A stretch of DNA of 58,100 nt, counting the filler, from Basidioascus undulatus (Eukaryota), in the NCBI GenBank assembly GCA_000826855.1. It is 6 parts of 6 records of this genome, joined end to end, with 100 filler letters (N's around TTAATTAATTAA, not from the genome) between each part and the next. Parts side by side here need not be neighbours in the genome. Positions count along the whole stretch, not along the records: positions 30,347 to 39,539 come from JTLS01001285.1; 5 more parts are not named here. One strand, 5' to 3'. The position numbers were made by a program, and so were the translations under genes. The notes beneath the pieces were generated by a model, which was given only the letters and a program-made list of their open reading frames with translations, was not told the DNA's origin and made no database searches. This document shows positions 5,894 through 49,957 of this stretch, in pieces. The first letter of the stretch is position 1; every line of letters starts with the position of its first letter.

Positions 5894-6676
5894 CTAGTAC
5901 AAGCTCAGGGCTCCTCTCGTGCACCCCATCGCTTCCCGACCCGACGAAGGCAGTGGGACAAACTCGACCGCCTTCCATCCCCCTCCCGCTGATCCGCCCT
6001 CCCCCTCGCCCTGAAGCTCACACCTTAGGTGCTCCAGATAGTCCTTGTATTCAGGCGGGACATCCCTCCACGGTAGGTCAATCGTCACCAGCTTGAGCTG
6101 CGGGGTGCGCGAGACCTTTTCCTTTGCGTGCCGCCGCACGAAGCGGAGGTCGTCGACGTTGAAGACTTGTATAACTGAGAGCTGTTCGATTGTGTTGGGC
6201 ATGTAATACAGATAGGCCATCATCCACGGCTTGATCGTCAAAGCTAATAGGCTTGGCGTGAGGAGCTTCAAATGAGCGAAGACGGTGTCCACGAGCATCG
6301 CTGCGGAGATCAAGATCCCAACCGTGGAAGTGCTAGGGAACGACTGCGCGATGGTGAGGCAAAGCCGTCGAGTGTGCCGAAGCGAGCTTTTCGCCGTTCC
6401 AAGGGACCGAAAGTCTCGGTAGATGTACTCTCCACAGAACGGTTTGAGGATGTTCAGGTCCGCAATGTGGATTTCCTCGTACAGCAGCGACGTCGCCTGC
6501 GAGTGCCACTGCTTGTTTACGAGGGCAGCAGATGCGAGTGAGCGGGGATCGAGGTAGCCGAGCACGTGCGCCAGCAGCTCCGGGAGGCGGTGCCAACTCG
6601 CTGCGTCGAGGGGCACGATCGAAAGCGACAGCGAGCTCGAGGAGGAAGCGAGTTGGTTCGAGTGCGTGTGAGCCAT
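5894..6676 (-). CDS. F-box domain protein, single exon, 260 aa
   Basis: Open ORF with N-terminal LPELLAHVLGYLDPRSLASAALVNKQWHSQATSLLYEEI F-box motif. Confidence 0.75.
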   Translation of the reverse strand: MAHTHSNQLASSSSSLSLSIVPLDAASWHRLPELLAHVLGYLDPRSLASAALVNKQWHSQATSLLYEEIHIADLNILKPFCGEYIYRDFRSLGTAKSSLRHTRRLCLTIAQSFPSTSTVGILISAAMLVDTVFAHLKLLTPSLLALTIKPWMMAYLYYMPNTIEQLSVIQVFNVDDLRFVRRHAKEKVSRTPQLKLVTIDLPWRDVPPEYKDYLEHLRCELQGEGEGGSAGGGWKAVEFVPLPSSGREAMGCTRGALSLY

Positions 6677-9017
6677 GGTGAGAAGGAACTACTTGGTGAA
6701 TGCTGGTGGTGATGGTGGGAGGACAGGAAGTGGTGTCCTGGGCATGCGTCAAAGCAATCTGTACCGGGGCCGCGTGGGCACCTTGTGGTTCCTGGAGCGG
6801 GTACACAAACAAACCAGCGGATGCCGACCAGAACCGCTCTGGACAGCAGACAGATGCCGCTTCATTTGCTGCGACCAAAAAGGAAAAATCCCTCAAGAAT
6901 CACGAGCTTTCATACCCCCGAAAAAGGTGCTTGTGATTGCAAGTGAGACGTTGCACCGTCAGCTGTACAGGCCGAGCCGAAAGCGAGCGGCCATTGACAG
7001 TGGACTACCCGTACCGGCTGCAGCGCACAATAGGTCACTCTTCCCAGTTCGATATTTTATGCTCATCAGACCATAGTAAGTTAAGGAAGCACATATTCCG
7101 GAAGAGACAAAAAAGGCAGAGGGGCAGAGGATGCCTACAAACCCGCTGCACAAAGGCAGAGCTAGACTGAGTGAATCAAGGGGATGGGCTCTTCCTCTGC
7201 CGAATCGTAAATATGCATCCAAATATATTTGAGGGATTATACTTGCACGTCAGCTTCGACATCCACACTGAGATGGAATACATCGTCTTCAACGGCGAGC
7301 ACCAAGACCGTACCGTGCCCGCCCAGAGCCGTGCTCGCACTTTCACTTCCCTGCGCTATCTCAGATCATGAAAAACCCCCTGTTTAAAGGAAGTTCCTTG
7401 GGAAGACGTGATGTGTCTATCAGTCGACCAGTGGCATTGTCACTGACGCTCCTGAGTCAGGAGTAGCACAGCAGAGCGGCACCCCCTTTTTCCCTCCGTC
7501 CACTGCATTGCGTTCTTCCCATGAGATCCCCCTCCGAATCATCAATTTAAAGTCTGCGAAGAAGTTCCCGGTGATAGCGAGATTGCTAATATGCTCCCAA
7601 ACCAACGCTAACTTACGCTGCATGGGAGACGGACCGTGCATCAGCAAGGCGCCTTCGCTCTCGGGGGGCTGGACTTGGCCCGCATGCATGTAGGGAAGGA
7701 GAGCCTAAAGATTTCACTTGGGAAGGTCATGGGAGTAAAGGGAGAGGCGCCCGATAGTTCCCTGTCTGTCGACCCTCTAAGAGCAGATGCGGCCGACGCA
7801 GCGACGCAGTGCCCAAGGCAGCTAACCACCCACCCATGCACAGAGGTTCAAAATACCTTCCTCTAGTTCTTTTCCCAGCCAAGATCTTTCCTTCAGCCAG
7901 TTGACCCAAGCGTTTTGAGCCTCAGTGCCTCAGCTCGAGCGCTCTCTGCAACACCTGAGTCGTGCACAGTCTACGCGATACGCCGGAGCAGCGGCGCCGC
8001 CTCACTTAGTCTAGCATTTCTTGCCTTGTCCACTCCCTCATCCAGGTCGCACACGGTGATAAAGTATGTGGAGGGGTTGGGCAAACGGTTGATACTTGCA
8101 TGCCAGCCTGCCGCGGCCGCACTGCCGTAGCAAATTGCGCATCTCGTTCACCTCTCATCTGTGAATACACCCGTGCGCACAGCGTCGATCTATACTTCGA
8201 CATTTCCCATCCCCATAGCGGGATATTTCATCCCACATCCGACACGTCCCACAGAGCACAACATGTGAAGATGAGCAGAGCAGGTCGAGCGGCAGCGGTC
8301 AGTCTCGCAACTGTTGCAGGCAGTCCTGGCATACTCATGCTTATTCCTTGCTGATGCTACAAAACACACTAAGACACGATTACTTGCTCCATGAGTTTGA
8401 GACCCTGTCCCGTACTCTCTCTCTAACTAGTCCACTGACTCCCCTTGCCGCATCAGTCCAATCGCCTCCTCCTCGGCATGCGTAGTTCGGAGTACGTAGT
8501 TCGTAGTTCGTAGAACACAACCAAGTCGTTTCCACAATGGCCATGGAGAGCCTCATCGACGTGATCATTGTGAAAATCAGCTTCCTCGCCCTGGGGTGAA
8601 CGGCACACAAATACAGCCTGTCTACCCACGTCAGACTTTGTGGCCGTTCCACTTAATCTTCTGCGATGCAGTTGCCGCCTGTGTACGTGAAGCGGCACCG
8701 CTGTCGCTTGCCTCGAGCGCTATTCGACGGTTCGTGTTGCAGCGTTCGAGTACAATATTTTCGAAATATTGTCATTGGCAAGGGGATCAGACCCAAAGCG
8801 ACAAGTAACCTAACAATTTGGCACTCCTCCTCGTCGCGGTGCTCAGAGAACATCTACCTCACGTGAAGTGCCGACCAACGCGTTGCGCGCCTTCCTCCCT
8901 TCCTGCCCTCGCTCCTCAAACGCCGTCGAGATCCTCGCCCTCCTCATCCCCTTCGCATCCTACACATCTTCAAGCACATAACTATCACACACAACACCGC
9001 ACACTCGATTGTCTACG

Positions 9018-9215: not shown

Positions 9216-9315
9216 NNNNNNNNNNNNNNNNNNNNNNNNNNNNNNNNNNNNNNNNNNNNTTAATTAATTAANNNNNNNNNNNNNNNNNNNNNNNNNNNNN
9301 NNNNNNNNNNNNNNN
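9216..9315. other. Artificial contig linker N44-TTAATTAATTAA-N44
   Basis: Same 100-nt spacer as at the four other joins; stops in all six frames. Confidence 0.98.
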
Positions 9316-11130: not shown

Positions 11131-12967
11131 CTTTTTGCAGCGTAGAGAGGGTTGGCGGGGGTGGTGCGGGCTTTCTCTCAACGCTTTCACTCATCGCTTC
11201 AAGCCGATACTCGACGATTCGCCCTTAAGGCCTCCCCCACGATCACGCTCAAATCAACGCTCAACTTCTTGTCTCCTCACGTTCTCAGTTCTCGCCTTCC
11301 AATCTTCTCGTCCTCTCATTCGCACCCGAGCCCGCTCCCTCCGCGCTTTACCAGCGCTCTCCACTGGGACCGTACAACCCTCTCTCTTCTCTCCTCGCGA
11401 CCTGCGCGTCCGAACTGCCCAGCCTCGCAGCGCAGCCGTCATCAAGTCTTCCACAATTGAAGTTCAGCATTTCGACTCCCACATGTCGTCTCCGTTCACG
11501 CTCGGCCCGTCTTCCTCTCGATCACCCTTTCATCCTCAACCTCAATATTGTCACCACCGCGGGCGCAGCTCAACCCCTCTCTCTCTCCCTTCCCTCTCCC
11601 TCTCCCATTTCCACCTCGCCACAACCCGAGCGCGACCGCCCCGGCCGTCAGCGAGGCAAGATCACCGATGTCCAATCAGCTCGTCCCCCCCTCTTCGCGC
11701 GCTCGTCGAAAATTCCGCCGGAAGGCGGGGGGGGGAGGCGCTTGGGGNGGGGGGGGGGGAGGGCGCTTGGGGATGGTCGGGAAAAAGGGGATTGGGATTA
11801 GTAGGGGTAGGATGGGTAGGCGAGGGAGAAGTCGCCCACGCCATTGAGGACCGTTAAATTGGACGAATGCGTGCGCTCGATGAGGGGCCATCGGGTCTGA
11901 GGGCCGTGGACATGCGGACATGCGAACTCAGGTGGATTTCGTTGATCTACCTTGCGTCCCGGACGCGACTATTTCATCTGCTGCTTGCGTCTGGGTCACC
12001 CTCGCCCATGGTCTAGCACTGAGCAGAAGACTTGAACCGGATGTTTCTATTTTCAAGATGCCCAGTGCATTGAAGCCTCGTCATCACATTTTTCGCCCTC
12101 TGAGCGGGGTGCAGATACAAGTTATTCCTTGCTGGACACCCAATTTCTGACGTTCTAAGGGAACGTGGGCGACACAAGTGACAGCTGGTTAGCTTGAATA
12201 CTGCCAGAGCGGATAATAAGCGAGCTCTGGAGTGGCTGCATGTCTGCAGAGAGAAATCACACAGATACAGGCACCCGGACGTATTGGCTGCAAGAGATGC
12301 CTTGGGGTTCAGGCCCGAAGAGGCAGGAAGAAACTAGGAGACTCATGTACCTTCGACAAATACTGAGCACACAGGAGTCTGGGACCGTCTACAGCTGGAT
12401 AGGGTATCCCCGAAAGTACCCGCGTATTTGTTTGGCGGAGTTGGACAGAATACAGTACTGTCTATAGAGCATTGGGAGCAGCGGGCAAACATCGGTGAGC
12501 TAAAGGCCAATTGAAGAGACAGTCAACAAACTCACAAGGTGGTGAAGCAAGATTTATTCCAAATATCACTACTGTGCTCAGAAAAAGCATAGATGGACTA
12601 CACAACAGCACAAGACAACAAACAAATAAAGGACAACGGGGCTAGGTCCCCTGTACCCAAGATGGGTACGTTGCACTGGGGTCCGGTGCAGATTCCTGCA
12701 TAAGCCCCTGTCAAGTATCGGCCTCCAAACCCTTACGCTAACGGGTTCGGGAACATGCAGTGCAGACAGCTTCTTGCAGTACCGATCCAGCGAAGATTGA
12801 AAATGCCCACACTTTACTGGTGAATAAGCGCGCTGTATTATAGAAGTCTGAAAAGATGTAGTACAAGCGAGTGGATTAAGAAATTAACAAAGAAGCCCAA
12901 AATAAGTTCCGTCTAAGATAATGAGCCGAGAGGATCCAAATAGGAAAAAAAGGGGGTGCGGGAGAAA

Positions 12968-20952: not shown

Positions 20953-21052
20953 NNNNNNNNNNNNNNNNNNNNNNNNNNNNNNNNNNNNNNNNNNNNTTAA
21001 TTAATTAANNNNNNNNNNNNNNNNNNNNNNNNNNNNNNNNNNNNNNNNNNNN
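20953..21052. other. Artificial contig linker
   Basis: N44-TTAATTAATTAA-N44. Confidence 0.98.
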
Positions 21053-22362: not shown

Positions 22363-23105
22363 TTAAGCAGCCTCGATCTCGGCGATGTACCCCTTGCTCT
22401 CCTCGGTGTCGGACTTGCGGAGGATCTGTCCTCCCTTCGTCAGTGGGTTTCTAGAAGGGAGGTCATGGGGCAGGGAAGGAAGGAAACGAAGGGGGAGAAA
22501 GGAAACGGGACGGACCTCGATCAGCGCGTCGACGTACTCTTTCTGCGCGTCCTCCTTCGACTTGCCCTCGACCTTCTTCCAGGCGTCCCTGTGGATGGGG
22601 GTGCATGAGAGGAACGTTAGCGAGGGAGGAGAGAGGAATGCGGAGAAAGAGGGAGAGGGAATGGGAATGGGAAAAAGAACGTACCACTTGGCCTTCCCAA
22701 CGAAGTCGAGCATCCCCGGGCGCGCGGTAGTGTTGTCACCCTCCTTGACTGATCCCCCCCAGCCCAACCAGTAACCATCATGGTGTCAGAAACCAGCCCC
22801 GGCCGACCGAATGCAAGGCAGATGAGGAGCCGCACGCACCCTGCTTGAACAGCGCGTAAAACTGCGGCGTTCCAGCAGGAGTCAGCCAACACACACCCGG
22901 AACGGGATGGAAAGTGCGATGAACAGACGCAGATGCACCTTGAGCTTCTCGTCCTGCGTCGGCTGGACGGGGCCCTCCTTCGGCAGAGACCCGACGATAG
23001 CGACAGCCTGTGTGTGCGACGACCCCCGAACTCAGCCCATCAGCTTGCGCGCCCGACGCGCTGCCGCGAGTCGGAGTGCACCTTCTCGAACTTGGCGGCG
23101 GACAT
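22363..23105 (-). CDS. ACB1: Acyl-CoA-binding protein, 6 exons
   Basis: MSAAKFEK|AVAIVGSLPKEGPVQPTQDEKLK|FYALFKQ|..EGDNTTARPGMLDFVGKAKW|DAWKKVEGKSKEDAQKEYVDALIE|ILRK... Confidence 0.93.
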
Positions 23106-23528
23106 GGTTGTGTAGTGGTAGTGAAGTGGAAGGGATGAGGAGACCAAAGGAGACACTCGCGTTGGGGAAGCGAGCTCGGCGGGATGTGAGGGGCACCGCG
23201 CCGGGTATCCGCGGACGCCGGTTCCTCGATGTCAGATTGTGACAGTGTCAAGGGTATAGCTGTCGCTCCTGTCTGTCCTTGGATTACGATCTCTACCCCC
23301 TACATCTCCATAATCATTCTAAACCTTTCCAACAGGGCAAGAGGAGGTTGGACTTGAGTAAAGCATTCAAGCCCCCACTGACATTGAGGAAGCAGGTAGC
23401 CCACATCTCCCTCGCAGCTCTTTCTGTCCTAGCCCCGTAGGCGCCGCTACCTTCCACCCTCCTTCAGCTCTCACATACGACATCCGCGCATCTAGCCATC
23501 TATGGACTTCTATCCCTCATCCCGCCTA

Positions 23529-24376
23529 TCATCCCCTCGCCCCCGCCTCCCCCTCGCTCTGCAAAGCCGCCATCGCCTCCCTCCACTGTTCCGGCGTATT
23601 AGTATTAACCAACCACCTCTTATCAATCGGCCTGACGAGCCCCCTCCCCTCAACCATCCCCTCCGGCGCATTGACGTCCTTCCATATCTGGCGCGCAGTG
23701 AAGCACGGCCCCGTCTTGCCCGCCTCGACGTTGTACCGCAGGCGCGCAAGCCCGTCCGGCGTCCACACCGCCATGAGCGGCTCGGGGTGCCCGTCTTCCG
23801 GGTGCAGGTACGCTGTGACGGGCGCGGGGGCCGTGGAGGAGAGGTGCGCTTGGAGGAGGTACGTGAGGGCGGAAGGGGTCACGAGGGGGAAGTCGACGGC
23901 GAGGACGAGGAAGGTCGAGTCGGGGTGGGCGGCCTGCGAGACATCGGGAGAGCCCTGAGTCAGCGTACATTTACAACCGGGGGAGAGATACATACGCACA
24001 TGAGCGGCCAAGAGACCTGCAGCAGGCCCAATATCGTGCCCTGGCTCATCGAGCACGACGGACATGCCGTCGGACAGGGTGTGCGGTAGCTGGGGCAGCT
24101 GGACCTGCCTCGCGGAGAGGCAGACGCCGTCCGGGCAGAGCGGGAGGAGGAGGGAGGCGTTGCGGAACCAGAGCGGGGTGGGTTCGGACGCGGCGAAGGA
24201 AATCGAGGGGGGCGCGTAGGGGAGGAGCGACTTGTCGGTGCCCACTGTGCGAGGGGGTTGCGAGAACGGTGAGATCTGTATATGGAGGGGAGAGGGAGAC
24301 GCTGAGAATGCGCACTTCGGGTAGAGTGCCCGCCGAGGAGGACTAGCCCGCGGAGAGGAGTCGTCGGCGCGGCCAT
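23529..24376 (-). CDS. mobA: Molybdenum cofactor guanylyltransferase (MobA-like NTP transferase), 3 exons, apparently intact
   Basis: LVLLGGHSTR-M-GTDKSLL (intron 24315-24245 splits the Met codon), DIGPAAGLLAAH, FLVLAVDFP, PEPLMAVW and LVNTNTPEQW match the MobA GGxSxRMGxDK, GPxxG, D-P, PL and NxNTP motifs. Confidence 0.88.
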
Positions 24377-24856
24377 CGTGCTCGTGCTCGTCGGTGTCGC
24401 TGAGTGTCCTATCGTCGTGGCCAGCACCGCAGTGGTCGTCGTCGTCTGTGAACAAGCTGTGTTTTCCTTTAGCAGAGCCCGAGCGTTACGAGGCGGTGCT
24501 CGCCATGCGAAACGGTGTGTGAGACTGAGACGCTGCCGTGCCTTGCAGCGCCATCTCCAAATGACGCCACCTGGTTCATCCAGACTCCTCCTCGATTGAG
24601 CAACGCCTCGGCCTCAAGCCTCATGAGGAGCATCATTGATTCTTCGACAATTATATGTTCTCTGCTCCCCAGCAGTGTTGTGGTCAGGCTGCTCCACTCA
24701 TTGTTTCCGATGCTATTGACCTCCTCCACCGATTGAGTGCCATTCGGCACATGCGAGCCACTGACCACACCCTCATGAATCTGCCCGCTATTCGTGGACG
24801 CTCGCTCGCTGGGCATTCGTCGTGGGACGATGCCCGTCGATCATCCTCCATTCTTC

Positions 24857-28100: not shown

Positions 28101-29645
28101 TGATAAACGCCCTGCAGCGCCGTGCTCAGCAGCCTCTCATTGAGAAGCTCACGGGCGGTTCCGGCATCCAGTAGCCGTGCAACGAGTCCGCTCCGAACGG
28201 GACCGAGCGACTGTACACGGACGGTGTATTCCCGACTGACGACGACCACTGCGAGGTGCGTTTGCACTTTCTCGGTCTCCGGCACCACTGCGTACTGAGA
28301 TACCTGTTGCGCCGGCATGCACAGCTGGGGCCACGACCTTGAGACGGGAACGCAACGCAGTACCGCTCCTTGAACCCGCCGGGAGGGCGATTCTGAAGAC
28401 GGCGCACTTCCGCGAGGCGGAGGACATGCCGAACGAGAAGTTCCCTTTCCTGCTTTCTACTGGCCATCGGGTTTACCAGTGCGTTCCATACTTCCGCCAG
28501 AACAAGGCTTACTAACTTGAATCTTTCACTTCCCTTCTCAGCAGCCGCACGAAGACGGGCCGCAGCAAGCGCCTGCAAGACGCGTCGCCCGAGAGCTTGG
28601 CACAGATCTCCGAGTCGGACACCGCGCGCCTGGGCCTCTCCGCCGGCGACCACGTCGTTGTCCGCTAGCGTACGGGCGGAGCGTTCGAAGTGCCGGTCAA
28701 GATTGGCGAGATCGAGGACGGGCACATCTACGTGCCCTTCCACTTCGGTTCGTTCGACGGCGGCGGCGGCGGCCGCGCGCAGTCCGCGAACGAGCTCACG
28801 AGCTGCCCCTGGGACAGCGTCCCGAAGCAGCCGTTCTTCAAGGGCGTGGCGGTCGAGACCGAGCGCGTCCCGGCCGGCGGCGAGGTCCTCATCCACGAGA
28901 GCTCGAATCGCCAAGCGGGACGCGGCGAGGCACAGCACCGACAGCGTGACCAAACTGAGGTCGAGGGGCGGCAGCAGGCACCTCGAGGACTTCGTGGGGC
29001 TGTGGGACGCTTACTCCGCAGAGATCCCCGAGATCTTCTAGTACCTCATCGGAGGTCTTGACCAGGACTACGAGATGCGGTCCGGCATCAAGGTCTTGCT
29101 CGAGTTCGCGGAGGCGGCGATCGAGGCCCTGAAGCCTTTCACAGAGAAGTATGTCCAATCACTCGGGTTTCCCTACGATGCCGGTGGCTTGTTCATCTTG
29201 CTCAATTATTTTACCAATTTCGCAGATACGGCAACAAACGTACCGTTGCTCAGAAGGATACCGACACAGTTCGCCGCGTCCTCTTCCCTGTAAGCGCTCA
29301 CCTCATTCATCCTCCAGCCTATCAGGATTCGTCCCTGCTTTTGACATAGCCACCCTCTTTTAGACCGAACGTCGCGGCCACGGGCCGTTCGACATCTTCA
29401 TGAAGCTGCAGGGCCTCGCCATCTTCGTTTCGGCGATCCAGGCGCACCTCGCGGCGCTGACGCCCGCGTTCAAGGCGCTGCACGACAACGACTTTAGCGA
29501 GCTGATCCTTCGCGTGGTTAGCCACTCTGGGCGCGTTCAGTCCTGGGTCCAGGCCAAGATCTCGTTCAAGGCACCGCAGGCACTCATCGTGCCTGCGCCG
29601 CGTGCGCTGGGGACTTTCCTGCCCACGGACGAGAACGAGGAGTGA
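25177..29645 (+). pseudogene. DMSO-reductase-family (Mo-bis-MGD) oxidoreductase, NapA/NasA nitrate-reductase-like, intron-rich; nonsense codons, frameshifts and an internal inversion (26649-28140)
   Basis: Motifs EEPEKWVQSTCI.CSN.CG.G.GVKDGKIAGVRG, DRLTQPLIR, LHMDGNTRLCTATAAKSMRDSFGCDGQPGSYTDID, GTNLAVLNG, LTGGSGIQ*PC, VPFHFG, ANELT..WDSVPKQPFFKG and C-terminal APQALIVP. In-frame TAG at 25300, 26248, 28172 and 28666. Confidence 0.9.
26649..28140 (-). other. Inverted central segment of the oxidoreductase gene
   Basis: Minus strand reads ERLLSTALQGVYQSNQ, ASACAVNNINIVRGKIGRPG, GQPTAQNNMETGCDGE, FPGFRNH, MFWISGTNPAVSLP, TNVDRTVH, VEPPGEARTDL and DYTGFS. This is exactly the part missing between the plus-strand LREAAKV and EKLTGGSG. 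Confidence 0.9.
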
Positions 29646-30246: not shown

Positions 30247-30346
30247 NNNNNNNNNNNNNNNNNNNNNNNNNNNNNNNNNNNNNNNNNNNNTTAATTAATT
30301 AANNNNNNNNNNNNNNNNNNNNNNNNNNNNNNNNNNNNNNNNNNNN
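30247..30346. other. Artificial contig linker
   Basis: N44-TTAATTAATTAA-N44. Confidence 0.98.
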
Positions 30347-30408
30347 TACTCTACCATTGAGCCAGCCGGCCGTGACCGACGCAGGGATCGAACCTGCAAC
30401 CCCCTGAT
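30347..30408 (-). tRNA. tRNA-Trp-like gene in permuted order: 3' half (30408-30373), 1-nt spacer (30372), 5' half (30371-30347, cut by contig end)
   Basis: Minus strand ATCAGG GGGTT GCAGG TTCGATC CCTGC GTCGGTC A | C | GGCCGGC TG GCTC AATGGTA GAGT A. The T-arm and D-arm fold, and GGCCGGC pairs with GTCGGTC. Trp is inferred from similarity to eukaryotic tRNA-Trp; the anticodon is not visible. Confidence 0.8.
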
Positions 30409-31659
30409 CTCAACTACCACTAGTTACGCTTTGTGGTGAGAACTAAACCCATTAGTACATATATGTAAGTTTCTTGGAGAATGAAACTTCGAAAAGGGGC
30501 TAGACAGTGAGAATTAGCGCCCACAGTCATGTAAGCGGAGGCAAGAGTTCTACTGCGTTCCATGCGACCCAGCATAAGACCTGCCAAATCTGCATTGACA
30601 GCCATAATACGGACGCACAGCTTCTTACTCGAACGAACAGTCAAGCAAAAACAATGAAACAGCAAGCACCGCCACTGCAAGATATTTACCACATCCCACC
30701 AGTCTCATTCTTCCACACCCTGTCCGAGAACCGTCCGAACGTGCCCCTCCAAACCTGGTTTGCAAGCTGCAACCACCCACCACCGCCCAGTCAATCGTTC
30801 ACACGCAGATCTTCGAATGTACAAGTGAACTACTTACCCCGATAGCAAACACCAAAGTCAAGAGAACCAACTCGACCCTATTCTGGCCGATCGGCCTGCT
30901 GGAGAAGTCGACGTTGGTGTTGAGCAGTCGGTGGTGCGGCATGCTGCGTACGTCGGTTGGCCAGTAGGGAGGGTCGTTGATCGTGCGTGGCTCAGGGAAG
31001 GCCTGCGACTCAGACCGCCGAACGGATGTGATGCTCGCCTGCGGAGAGCGGTCGGTGGACGCCGCGGACTGGTCGGCGTGGCCGATGAGCGAGAGGGTCG
31101 ATGTGGCTCCTGGAGGGATACCGGCGCCTCCAGACGGTCGTCTGCGTTTGCTGGCGCAATTCGGACCTTATCACTGTGCGGAGAGGAGAGGGAATTCAAC
31201 TGCTGTCGGACACTTAAAGAGTGGCGAGACGTACAGCGCTGCCTTTGTGAAACGTGAAAGCTTCGCCAGGTGGTGGAAGGGGAGCAGCGTAAGACCGGAC
31301 TGAATTAACAGTGCTGAATATTATTCGGATCCCTATCTCAAGGAGAACAGTTAGAGGAGATGCCACGGGACCGAGCAAGGGCGGACAGTCGGAAGCGCGA
31401 GTCCGCGGCCGGTCGCAAGGGCGTCTGGGAAGTCGTTCTCGCCAGCAAGCGTCCGACCCGTATAGCTCGTCTCTTCCAGTTCCAGCAATCGTAGTCAGAG
31501 AACTATCATCCCTCAATAATCATCATCCCTTCGAATACTCCGTCGAATATGCGCCTCTGTAGCAGCGTTGCCAATTTCTCAAGCCGCCCCCTCTTTCAGC
31601 ACCTCTTCCCGTCTTCGTCTCGGCAACGGCGCTTCTCTTTCACACACGGCGCTCACGCT

Positions 31660-39539: not shown

Positions 39540-39639
39540 NNNNNNNNNNNNNNNNNNNNNNNNNNNNNNNNNNNNNNNNNNNNTTAATTAATTAANNNNN
39601 NNNNNNNNNNNNNNNNNNNNNNNNNNNNNNNNNNNNNNN
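39540..39639. other. Artificial contig linker
   Basis: N44-TTAATTAATTAA-N44. Confidence 0.98.
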
Positions 39640-48820: not shown

Positions 48821-48920
48821 NNNNNNNNNNNNNNNNNNNNNNNNNNNNNNNNNNNNNNNNNNNNTTAATTAATTAANNNNNNNNNNNNNNNNNNNNNNNN
48901 NNNNNNNNNNNNNNNNNNNN
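48821..48920. other. Artificial contig linker
   Basis: N44-TTAATTAATTAA-N44. Confidence 0.98.
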
Positions 48921-48988
48921 GTCAGATACTCTACCATTGAGCCAGCCGGCCGTGACCGACGCAGGGATCGAACCTGCAACCCCCTGAT
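48921..48988 (-). tRNA. Second tRNA-Trp-like gene in permuted order: 3' half (48988-48953), 1-nt spacer (48952), 5' half (48951-48921, to C32)
   Basis: Core identical to 30347-30408. The 5' half extends to TCTGAC, and its TCTGA pairs with the TCAGG of the upstream 3' half (anticodon stem). Confidence 0.82.
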
Positions 48989-49957
48989 CTCGACTACCAC
49001 TTGCTTACGCTGGGCGGTGATGGACAAACCCTTGTCAGACTTATGAATCCCAAACTTAATTCTTCAGCATCCTAGTGATTGAGCTCTACTGCAGGGGGAG
49101 GTACCTTGAATGTGCCTTTGCCTTGTATTCCAGAACTCCCCCGGACAGCAGGGCCCTCGTGCTCCAGAAGTGCACATCCGCATCGACTTCAACCTTCTTG
49201 CAGAGCCTCGCTCTTAGTAAGGCCAAATCAGAATGTATAACTCCGTCCCCAACTTACCAATGCCACGCAAGCGTGCGGTGGGCCCCCTGAAGAGGGGTTC
49301 GTTGGGGGGTGGAAAGACAAGGTTCAGGCCAATGGGCAGGTTCGCATGAACAGATTGTCAACTTTAGGAGAGACTGTCGAGGTTCTCTGGATGGAATAAA
49401 GCGCTGAATTTGTTGTAAAGAAAAATTGGAGGTAACAAACCTGCAATAAACCTTCCCTGGTAGGTACATAACCTCCAACCAGGCCAAAGAGCAGACCTTT
49501 CCTTTGAACAAACCGTACGGCAGACGAATGACACCCCCGCTTCAGACATTCGAGCTTATAGATGACTTACCGACTGGAAATGAAGAACAACTATCTTTCC
49601 ACCCTCCGCTTGGAGGTCCTGCGAAGACAAGGGCAGGGTCGGGTTCTCAGCCACTGCGACCTGTTGTTTCATAAGAGATCATCTTACAATAGGAACGTTA
49701 CAATGTGAGGAGCTTTAACAAGAGAAACCTCTACATAGTGGTCAGTCTACGAGAGCTTGCTGCTGGGCTCGTCGCTAGTTCATTTTTTTAATTACAATGC
49801 CGGTAGCGGAGATAAATTACGCGTTCCGGTTGGGGCAAAAACATTCCATGAATCTGTTCAATGACTCAGGTAATTCAAGTTCAAGGACACCAGTGCTGCG
49901 ACTCAACGACAAACAACAAACGGCGTTCAATGTTTCAGTCGATCGCATTGTAACGCG

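Follow-up and report, generated by a model that had tools for sequence, protein, structure and literature searches.

We report here a fungal element, seen in two copies in the analysed DNA of Basidioascus undulatus, in which the 3' half of a tRNA lies upstream of its 5' half on the same strand, the two halves jointly forming a canonical cloverleaf. The reading that we prefer, with a probability of roughly 0.45, is that these are working circularly permuted tRNA genes of Trp type, dispersed in many copies and matured through a circular intermediate. The original prediction, which had proposed a permuted tRNA-Trp gene system from the same two copies, is thereby partly supported: the layout stands, while the number of genes has to be revised and the assignment to tRNA-Trp stays tentative.

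The window, i.e. the whole stretch of DNA that was analysed (58.1 kb), consists of six contigs of about 9.2-11.6 kb each, whose neighbours here are not adjacent in the genome, with spacers of the form N44-TTAATTAATTAA-N44 between them. A lone N is found at position 11748.

The two halves of a tRNA lie in permuted order

The element occupies the first bases of contig 4 (from 30347) and of contig 6 (from 48921). Read on the minus strand, both copies have the same order: tRNA positions 38-73, one C, and then positions 1-26 (copy 1) or 1-32 (copy 2), after which the contig ends. The features are the following.

9216-9315, 20953-21052, 30247-30346, 39540-39639 and 48821-48920: spacers between contigs
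30371..30347, minus strand: copy 1, 5' half, G1-A26 (acceptor 5' strand, D arm, position 26), truncated where the contig ends
30372, minus strand: copy 1, single intervening base C that separates A73 from G1
30408..30373, minus strand: copy 1, 3' half, A38-A73 (anticodon-stem 3' strand, variable loop, T arm with B box, acceptor 3' strand, discriminator A)
30409..30450, minus strand: copy 1, leader, partly common to copy 2 (GGGTTT.., TCACC, AGCGTAA, AGTGGTAGTTGAG)
48951..48921, minus strand: copy 2, 5' half, G1-C32 (including the anticodon-stem 5' strand TCTGA and C32), truncated where the contig ends
48952, minus strand: copy 2, one-base intervening sequence C
48988..48953, minus strand: copy 2, 3' half, A38-A73
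48989..49031, minus strand: copy 2, leader

In copy 2 the 3' half reads A38, TCAGG, GGGTT, GCAGG-TTCGATC-CCTGC, GTCGGTC and A73, and the 5' half GGCCGGC, TG, GCTC-AATGGTA-GAGT, A, TCTGA and C32. This body is presumably of Trp type, by comparison with yeast and human tRNA-Trp. The window copies end at position 26 or 32, i.e. before the anticodon.

To judge the layout against chance, we counted three words over the whole window: a 16-nt word across the junction, a 21-nt word of the T arm and a 16-nt word of the D arm. Chance is excluded, because each of them occurs exactly twice for expected counts of 0.03, 0.00 and 0.03, respectively, and two matches were seen in none of 100 shuffles.

The halves had been described as complementary, and this was confirmed by re-ordering copy 2 (positions 1-32, five filler bases at 33-37, then positions 38-73). 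In such conditions, ARAGORN called a 73-nt cloverleaf in 4 of 4 constructs, with an acceptor stem of 7 bp (including two G.U pairs), a D stem of 4 bp, an anticodon stem of 5 bp and a T stem of 5 bp; the isotype name given to these constructs comes from the filler anticodon only. The same program called neither of the two element sequences (0/2) in native order. The anticodon stem TCTGA/TCAGG that had been predicted is present in copy 2, but it is missing from copy 1, which stops at position 26. The expectation that standard finders would miss the element was borne out, since over the whole window ARAGORN reported 0 genes and Rfam 0 matches at gathering score.

The junction recurs in public runs and belongs to a multi-copy family

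Both copies stand at contig ends and the region is repeated, as would be the case if a chimeric or collapsed repeat had been created by the assembly. Three public runs cover the region: X1, which is probably the source of the assembly, X2, which comes from another study (2014), and X3, made from the sample of X1. The runs comprise about 34-35 Mb of contigs. X3, with 36,764 contigs and 15.7 M letters, covers 4 of 30 bins; its contig sizes are transcriptome-like and it is not on record as RNA. The k=31 contigs of these runs were aligned to window positions 48921-49520, i.e. to copy 2 alone.

Exact k=31 contigs span the junction in two runs of different studies, and long contigs (18.5 kb and 50.7 kb) carry it as well. 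Moreover, the junction sits 19-25 nt (copy 1) and 25-31 nt (copy 2) within the window contigs. An assembly artefact is scarcely credible in view of these observations. The permuted order of the halves, with a break of the 37/38 type, had been the central claim of the original prediction and it holds: A73, C and G1 follow each other in both copies, and contigs of X1 and X2 also carry the junction.

The depth of these contigs points to many copies. Single-copy depth, taken from unique flank, is 41.7 in X1 and 17.8 in X2. In X1 the k=31 contigs across the junction carry one mismatch and reach a depth of 472.7; in X2 the depth is 298.3 for an exact match and 175.4 with one mismatch. These values correspond to about 11, 17 and 10 copy-equivalents, respectively; since contig depth does not translate directly into copy number, only a copy-number class is claimed. 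Over the first ~90 nt of copy 2 we counted 53 contigs in X1 and 52 in X2. Among the matches listed, the upstream flank is represented by at least 10 contigs with 5 divergence points in X1 and by at least 11 contigs with 5 points in X2; these contigs part from copy 2 between 48998 and 49012 (positions -10 to -24) and run into differing sequences. In the other direction, 5 contigs of X1, 5 of X2 and 1 of X3 match copy 2 to its first base and continue past it. The element is thus a dispersed multi-copy family of roughly 25-30 copies or more, as estimated from contig depths, and not one or two genes.

Such numbers raise the question of a SINE-like or pseudogene family, in which a permuted or dimeric polymerase III transcript derived from tRNA-Trp (for example a circularised or tandem pre-tRNA) would have been copied to DNA and spread without giving a working tRNA. 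The copy number and the many differing flanks suit this proposal, and the scatter of the divergence points could reflect 5' truncations. Some fungal genomes do contain repeats derived from tRNAs (PMC8450103, available part), and fungal SINE families range from 5 to ~160 copies according to the accessible text of PMC5063351. Two models for the origin of permuted genes, head-to-tail duplication and reverse transcription of a circularised pre-tRNA, appear in the portion of PMC3978253 at hand, and the second of them would suit this proposal. About 25-30 near-identical copies are also several times the number that we would expect for tRNA-Trp genes. For all anticodons together, 80,824 tRNA predictions in 432 fungal genomes, i.e. 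~187 per genome, are given in the accessible part of PMC8450103. We nevertheless hold a SINE-like origin to be unlikely, for reasons given below with the ends and the conservation of the element.

The shared block begins and ends in the anticodon loop

Since both window copies are cut within the 5' half, their permuted look might be due to the early contig end: behind a duplicated 3' fragment, the locus could hold a tRNA-Trp gene of the usual kind, or several complete genes arrayed head to tail. Prokaryotic tandem tRNA genes, with spacers of 0-4 nt, have the same spacing between T arm and D arm. They make up a large part of the loci found in a metagenome scan, in which a strict pattern of the element gave 0 loci and a loose one at least 119, by eye all tandem complete tRNA genes or YrlA-like RNAs, with none like the element among the matches listed.

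A related copy that continues past the 5' half bears directly on this question. It is carried by an 18.5-kb contig of X1 and a 4.2-kb contig of X2, and its letters run ..GAGTATCT -> AACTACGA, C, TTTTTT, GCTTCGCG.., the last of these being unrelated sequence. In terms of tRNA positions, this corresponds to A30 A31 C32 T33 A34 C35 G36 A37, followed by one base and T6. The original prediction would have been contradicted by a 5' half that runs on into an intron and a full 3' half; neither an intron nor a second 3' half follows position 37 in this sole read-through copy (X1 and X2), which is one divergent copy. In addition, no other D-arm or T-arm word is present in either of the two 9.2-kb contigs. 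Run at its default threshold with introns permitted, ARAGORN found no upstream gene (0/2) in 600 nt; relaxed thresholds gave only inconsistent calls (Gln and Ala, with 'introns' of 342 and 475 nt). The claim that no 5' half precedes the 3' half is therefore upheld, although the leader does contain the hexamer TGGTAG of the D loop.

Two short contigs of X3 refine this picture. The first one (45 nt, depth 60.7) extends from G66 across the spacer and along the 5' half, stopping precisely at position 37, five bases beyond C32. The block shared by the copies starts a few bases before position 38 and stops at position 37; its ends are therefore those that a type II permuted gene predicts, and there is no obvious reason to expect them from a repeat or from a tRNA mimic. 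The second one (93 nt, depth 32.7) lies on the reference twice (48931-48993) with a 63-nt period composed of positions 1-22, TCGAG, positions 38-73 and C; the join is seamless and goes through TGGTAG, common to the D loop (16-22) and to the leader (-11 to -6). This contig could represent a locus that has an additional, deleted unit; should X3 be an RNA library, it could instead be a repeated cDNA. The repeated unit is what a tandem array would give, and unit variants of this kind would also suit a SINE-like family. This contig suggests that some units have an intact 5' part in place of the 'leader', and this fits an origin by head-to-tail duplication. That the leader could be a decayed 5' part is suggested by this contig only; when leader and 5' half are compared within the window copies, their resemblance is not significant, 788 and 258 of 2000 shuffles, respectively, scoring as well.

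With the read-through copy passing from position 37 into C, T6 and unrelated sequence, and with no additional arm word in the two window contigs, an ordinary gene or a tandem array is very improbable. In the permuted reading, joining position 37 to A38 would restore an anticodon loop of 7 nt. The loop of the read-through copy, CTACGA (anticodon ACG), keeps U33 and A37, and A30 faces C40 in this copy. The identity of the tRNA was proposed to be tRNA-Trp: the body agrees with this, on the comparison mentioned above, while the only anticodon loop seen is not CCA (n=1), an observation that a SINE-like family would accommodate as well. The read-through copy may be atypical or dead, because it is displayed precisely for differing from copy 2.

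The tRNA parts are conserved and the leader drifts

We then compared the two window copies. From position -4 through 73, the spacer and positions 1-26, they are identical at 65 of 65 positions, whereas their leaders agree in 39 of 54 aligned columns, with several indels (Fisher p = 2e-6 versus the tRNA parts). The identical stretch includes the acceptor stem, the variable loop and the T stem, which are not needed for a promoter; neutral copies of a SINE-like family should on the contrary decay evenly. The conservation would thus be that of a gene and not of a decaying repeat, as judged from the two full copies and the contig depths.

The spacer base offers a second comparison. The exact and the one-mismatch junction contigs both end at 48982 (= 48952 + 30). 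For k=31 contigs, this geometry indicates that the sole difference between them is the spacer base itself, from which we infer that two large subfamilies differ at this base alone (48952 in copy 2). If so, the acceptor stem would be invariant over ~27 copies while the intervening base varies.

Other properties of the element are also at odds with a SINE-like family. The read-through copy has no tRNA-unrelated body and no A-rich or LINE-like tail, its T6 (seen in this one copy) coming one base past position 37. With ~130 nt, the unit is moreover shorter than fungal SINEs, for which the accessible text of PMC5063351 gives 140-900 bp.

Open reading frames called through the element were considered too. 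In the sense frame there was no candidate at near lengths and there were 12 at longer lengths, none of them scoring; in the antisense frame, none was found among 1.84 billion representatives.

The leader is complementary to the end of the 5' half

The minimum-energy fold of copy 2 (-34.2 kcal/mol) comprises the T arm, an acceptor hairpin (6 bp, loop of 4 nt), the D arm and a terminal helix. In this helix, the leader sequence GUC-G-AGAU (positions -1 to -6 plus A38 and T39) pairs with A26-C32. The anticodon-stem 5' strand is sequestered in this way, one register off the cloverleaf stem and with single-base bulges. Forcing the anticodon stem of the cloverleaf in copy 2 gave -31.8 kcal/mol, i.e. 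2.4 kcal/mol costlier. In copy 1, it is likewise the last 12 nt of the leader that pair with positions 26-32 of the 5' half and beyond. The final 21 nt of each window leader, when paired with the read-through copy's 3' end, reached -12.9 kcal/mol, a value equalled in only 12 and 3 of 1000 shuffles. By hand, the last 12 bases of the leader are the reverse complement of positions 27-36 in an arm bearing CCA, with two single-base bulges; the leader UGG would then face the CCA anticodon, and a possible C32-G(-3) pair would put the 3' cut site in a 3-nt bulge. No bulge-helix-bulge motif was evident in the pairing of leader and 3' end.

This helix could be the anticodon-intron pairing of a splicing substrate or, equally, the terminal stem of a stable mimic. 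The second possibility would make the element a family of non-decoding tRNA-mimic RNAs resembling YrlA and Y RNAs, in which leader and 3' end form a long terminal stem, the T arm, the capped acceptor hairpin and the D arm mimic the tRNA elbow, and the polymerase III stop leaves a U-tail. The minimum-energy fold has exactly this architecture, its leader/3'-end helix beats nearly all shuffles, and conservation of the whole body would suit any RNA that is required to resemble a tRNA. Furthermore, when E values up to 10 are admitted, Rfam gives a single match to the element, YrlA (28.7 bits, E 2.5e-4); model positions 27-81, over which it extends, are the T arm, the acceptor hairpin and the D arm in the order of the element. 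This score is, however, far under the gathering score of 69. YrlA is bacterial, and none of the matches listed from the scan (at least 119 metagenome loci with the same arm order) resembles the fungal element. A mimic would not need a shared block that stops exactly at position 37, nor a loop that keeps U33 and A37, and dozens of copies would be unusual for such RNAs. Altogether we regard a mimic as quite unlikely.

The YrlA-like loci of the metagenome scan, e.g. L002, L025, L026, L035, L088 and L095, consist of a T arm, a tetraloop-capped acceptor hairpin and a D arm, with no 3' half downstream; the remaining loci are tandem tRNA genes with spacers of 0-4 nt.

With regard to transcription, box A lies downstream of box B in the element, an order that is awkward for TFIIIC. 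An A/T-rich patch is visible by eye in several copies about 45-65 nt before A38 (ATATAT, TATTTTAATT, AATTTAATT, ATAAAAG; 30459-30464 in copy 1). The context of these patches is 54-57% G+C. Such a patch may be a TATA-like promoter element.

A model for maturation through a circular intermediate

Working permuted tRNA genes remain the reading that we favour, based on the complementary halves, the block ends at 38/37, the position of the terminator, the presence of U33 and A37, and a body that is conserved as against a drifting leader. Against it stand the fact that the window copies of the main family are cut before the anticodon, the sole loop seen being ACG, the high copy number, the competing leader helix and the reversed order of the boxes.

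The unit would be a polymerase III gene of ~130 nt composed of a leader of ~12-55 nt, positions 38-73, one base, positions 1-37, one base and a T-run. Gene order, the fit of the halves, the copy-number class, the pattern of conservation and one terminator were read directly; the steps of expression and processing that we propose, as well as the anticodon, are inferred. Transcription would start in or before the leader, driven by the B box in the T arm, by a D-loop-like AGTGGTAG ~22 nt upstream of the B box and often by an A/T-rich patch further up, and it would stop at the T-run just past position 37. The transcript would then fold into the T arm, an acceptor stem with a tiny closing loop and the D arm, its ends meeting at the anticodon arm. 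The tRNA splicing endonuclease would cut before A38 and after position 37, and tRNA ligase would join 37 to 38, giving a circle that RNase P could open 5' of G1. Finally, the extra base after A73 might be kept as C74 or trimmed, and CCA would be completed. The layout itself would probably originate from a head-to-tail tRNA duplication or from a circularised tRNA copied back into DNA.

A bolder version of this model can be formulated, in which the fungus makes its tRNA-Trp from permuted genes only, the circle being opened by RNase P at the one-base acceptor loop, and in which the family may spawn other anticodons, since the ACG copy keeps U33, A37 and the terminator. We would bet against this version, but its consequences deserve mention. 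If true, it would be the first such system in fungi or in any opisthokont, and the first multi-copy family of permuted tRNA genes.

Permuted tRNA genes are usually seen as relics, or as a quirk of lineages that combine transcription from upstream promoters with endonucleases recognising bulge-helix-bulge motifs. A multi-copy case in a fungus would show that a splicing endonuclease, a ligase and an RNase P of the yeast type are able to mature permuted genes. It would also show that a recent origin of the layout is possible, whether by head-to-tail duplication or by way of a circularised tRNA, and that tRNA counts made with standard finders can miss a whole isoacceptor family. Should the element turn out to be a repeat or a tRNA mimic instead, its two complete tRNA halves would make it a polymerase III element of a kind that is new for fungi.

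Genes elsewhere in the window suggest a fungal host

The identity of the host matters because a trebouxiophyte alga has been reported to have permuted tRNA genes (PMC12636532, available part). We therefore looked at other genes in the window. A gene for an acyl-CoA-binding protein (ACBP, ~100 codons) is found at ~22400-23110 on the minus strand, with at least 6 exons and five introns of ~70-97 nt whose signals (GTNNGT, CTRAC and CAG) are of the fungal intron type. These introns suggest a very intron-dense fungal genome, which would explain the rarity of long ORFs with Pfam hits: 0 hits were obtained for the 43 ORFs of the two element-bearing contigs. An Atlas search with one ORF of 383 aa also gave no match.

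An ORF for a MobA-like NTP transferase occupies 23532-24485 on the minus strand. Its best relatives are annotated as molybdopterin-guanine dinucleotide biosynthesis protein A, and the only relatives with a name come from two ascomycetes and a bacterium. About 4 kb from this ORF, at 28669-29058 on the plus strand, part of a molybdopterin-dinucleotide-binding domain was noticed. A bacterial-type cofactor pair beside an intron-rich eukaryotic gene on one contig makes gene transfer possible. Elsewhere, an ORF with an F-box domain (E 6e-9) is present at 5897-6688 on the minus strand.

A fungal origin of the element, as originally supposed, is therefore plausible, the support coming from other contigs of the same assembly, with the five introns of the ACBP gene and the fungi among the relatives of the MobA-like ORF.

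Comparison with known systems

In eukaryotes, permuted tRNA genes are confined to certain unicellular algae according to the available parts of two reviews, of 2014 (PMC3978253) and 2026 (PMC13578239), and a trebouxiophyte was recently added (PMC12636532, as far as its accessible text goes). The statement that no fungal case had been described agrees with a full-text literature search, in which no title among the matches listed concerned a permuted tRNA gene in a fungus; a search on a 15-nt word of the D arm returned nothing related.

The closest systems are the type II (37/38) genes of Cyanidioschyzon merolae, of Ostreococcus (prasinophytes), of the Bigelowiella nucleomorph and, since 2025, of the trebouxiophyte Auxenochlorella. 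In the accessible parts of PMC3978253, PMC13578239 and PMC12636532, these genes likewise have the 3' half upstream of the 5' half on one strand with the break in the anticodon loop, and leader, intervening sequence and trailer are all present; the 5' half is followed by a T-stretch, and an A/T-rich patch is frequent upstream. They are single genes, whereas the fungal element exists in dozens of near-identical copies, and its intervening sequence is of 1 nt as compared with 7-74 nt in C. merolae. The element differs further by its fungal host, by the lack of a clear bulge-helix-bulge motif and by a D-loop-like word upstream of box B. The permuted tRNA-Tyr(GUA) of Thermofilum pendens likewise has a single intervening nucleotide where the two ends of the acceptor stem, 3' and then 5', meet (PMC3978253, available part); it is archaeal and single-copy, with its junction at 59/60 and CCA encoded, whereas in the fungal element a single base follows A73.

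Similarities with other classes of elements are more limited. YrlA and Y RNA-like molecules (RF02553) have the same order of T arm, capped acceptor hairpin, D arm and a terminal stem made of both RNA ends, but YrlA is bacterial and has no anticodon-loop half, whereas the fungal 5' half runs on to position 37 and the score of the element is far under threshold. The fungal tRNA-derived SINEs MgSINE, Foxy and AfuSINE2 are likewise dispersed, with a polymerase III-type promoter and a similar copy-number class; as described in the accessible part of PMC5063351, they have a tRNA-like head in normal order, a tRNA-unrelated body and target-site duplications, for 140-900 bp. By contrast, the element consists of two halves that are complete, complementary and permuted in order; it has no body, and T6 comes one base past position 37. 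Prokaryotic tandem tRNA genes (0-4 nt spacers) also have a T arm followed ~20 nt on by a D arm, but both genes are complete there, while neither flank completes a gene in the fungal element. The permuted layout is therefore already known; what is new is its fungal host, its multi-copy state and its one-base spacer.
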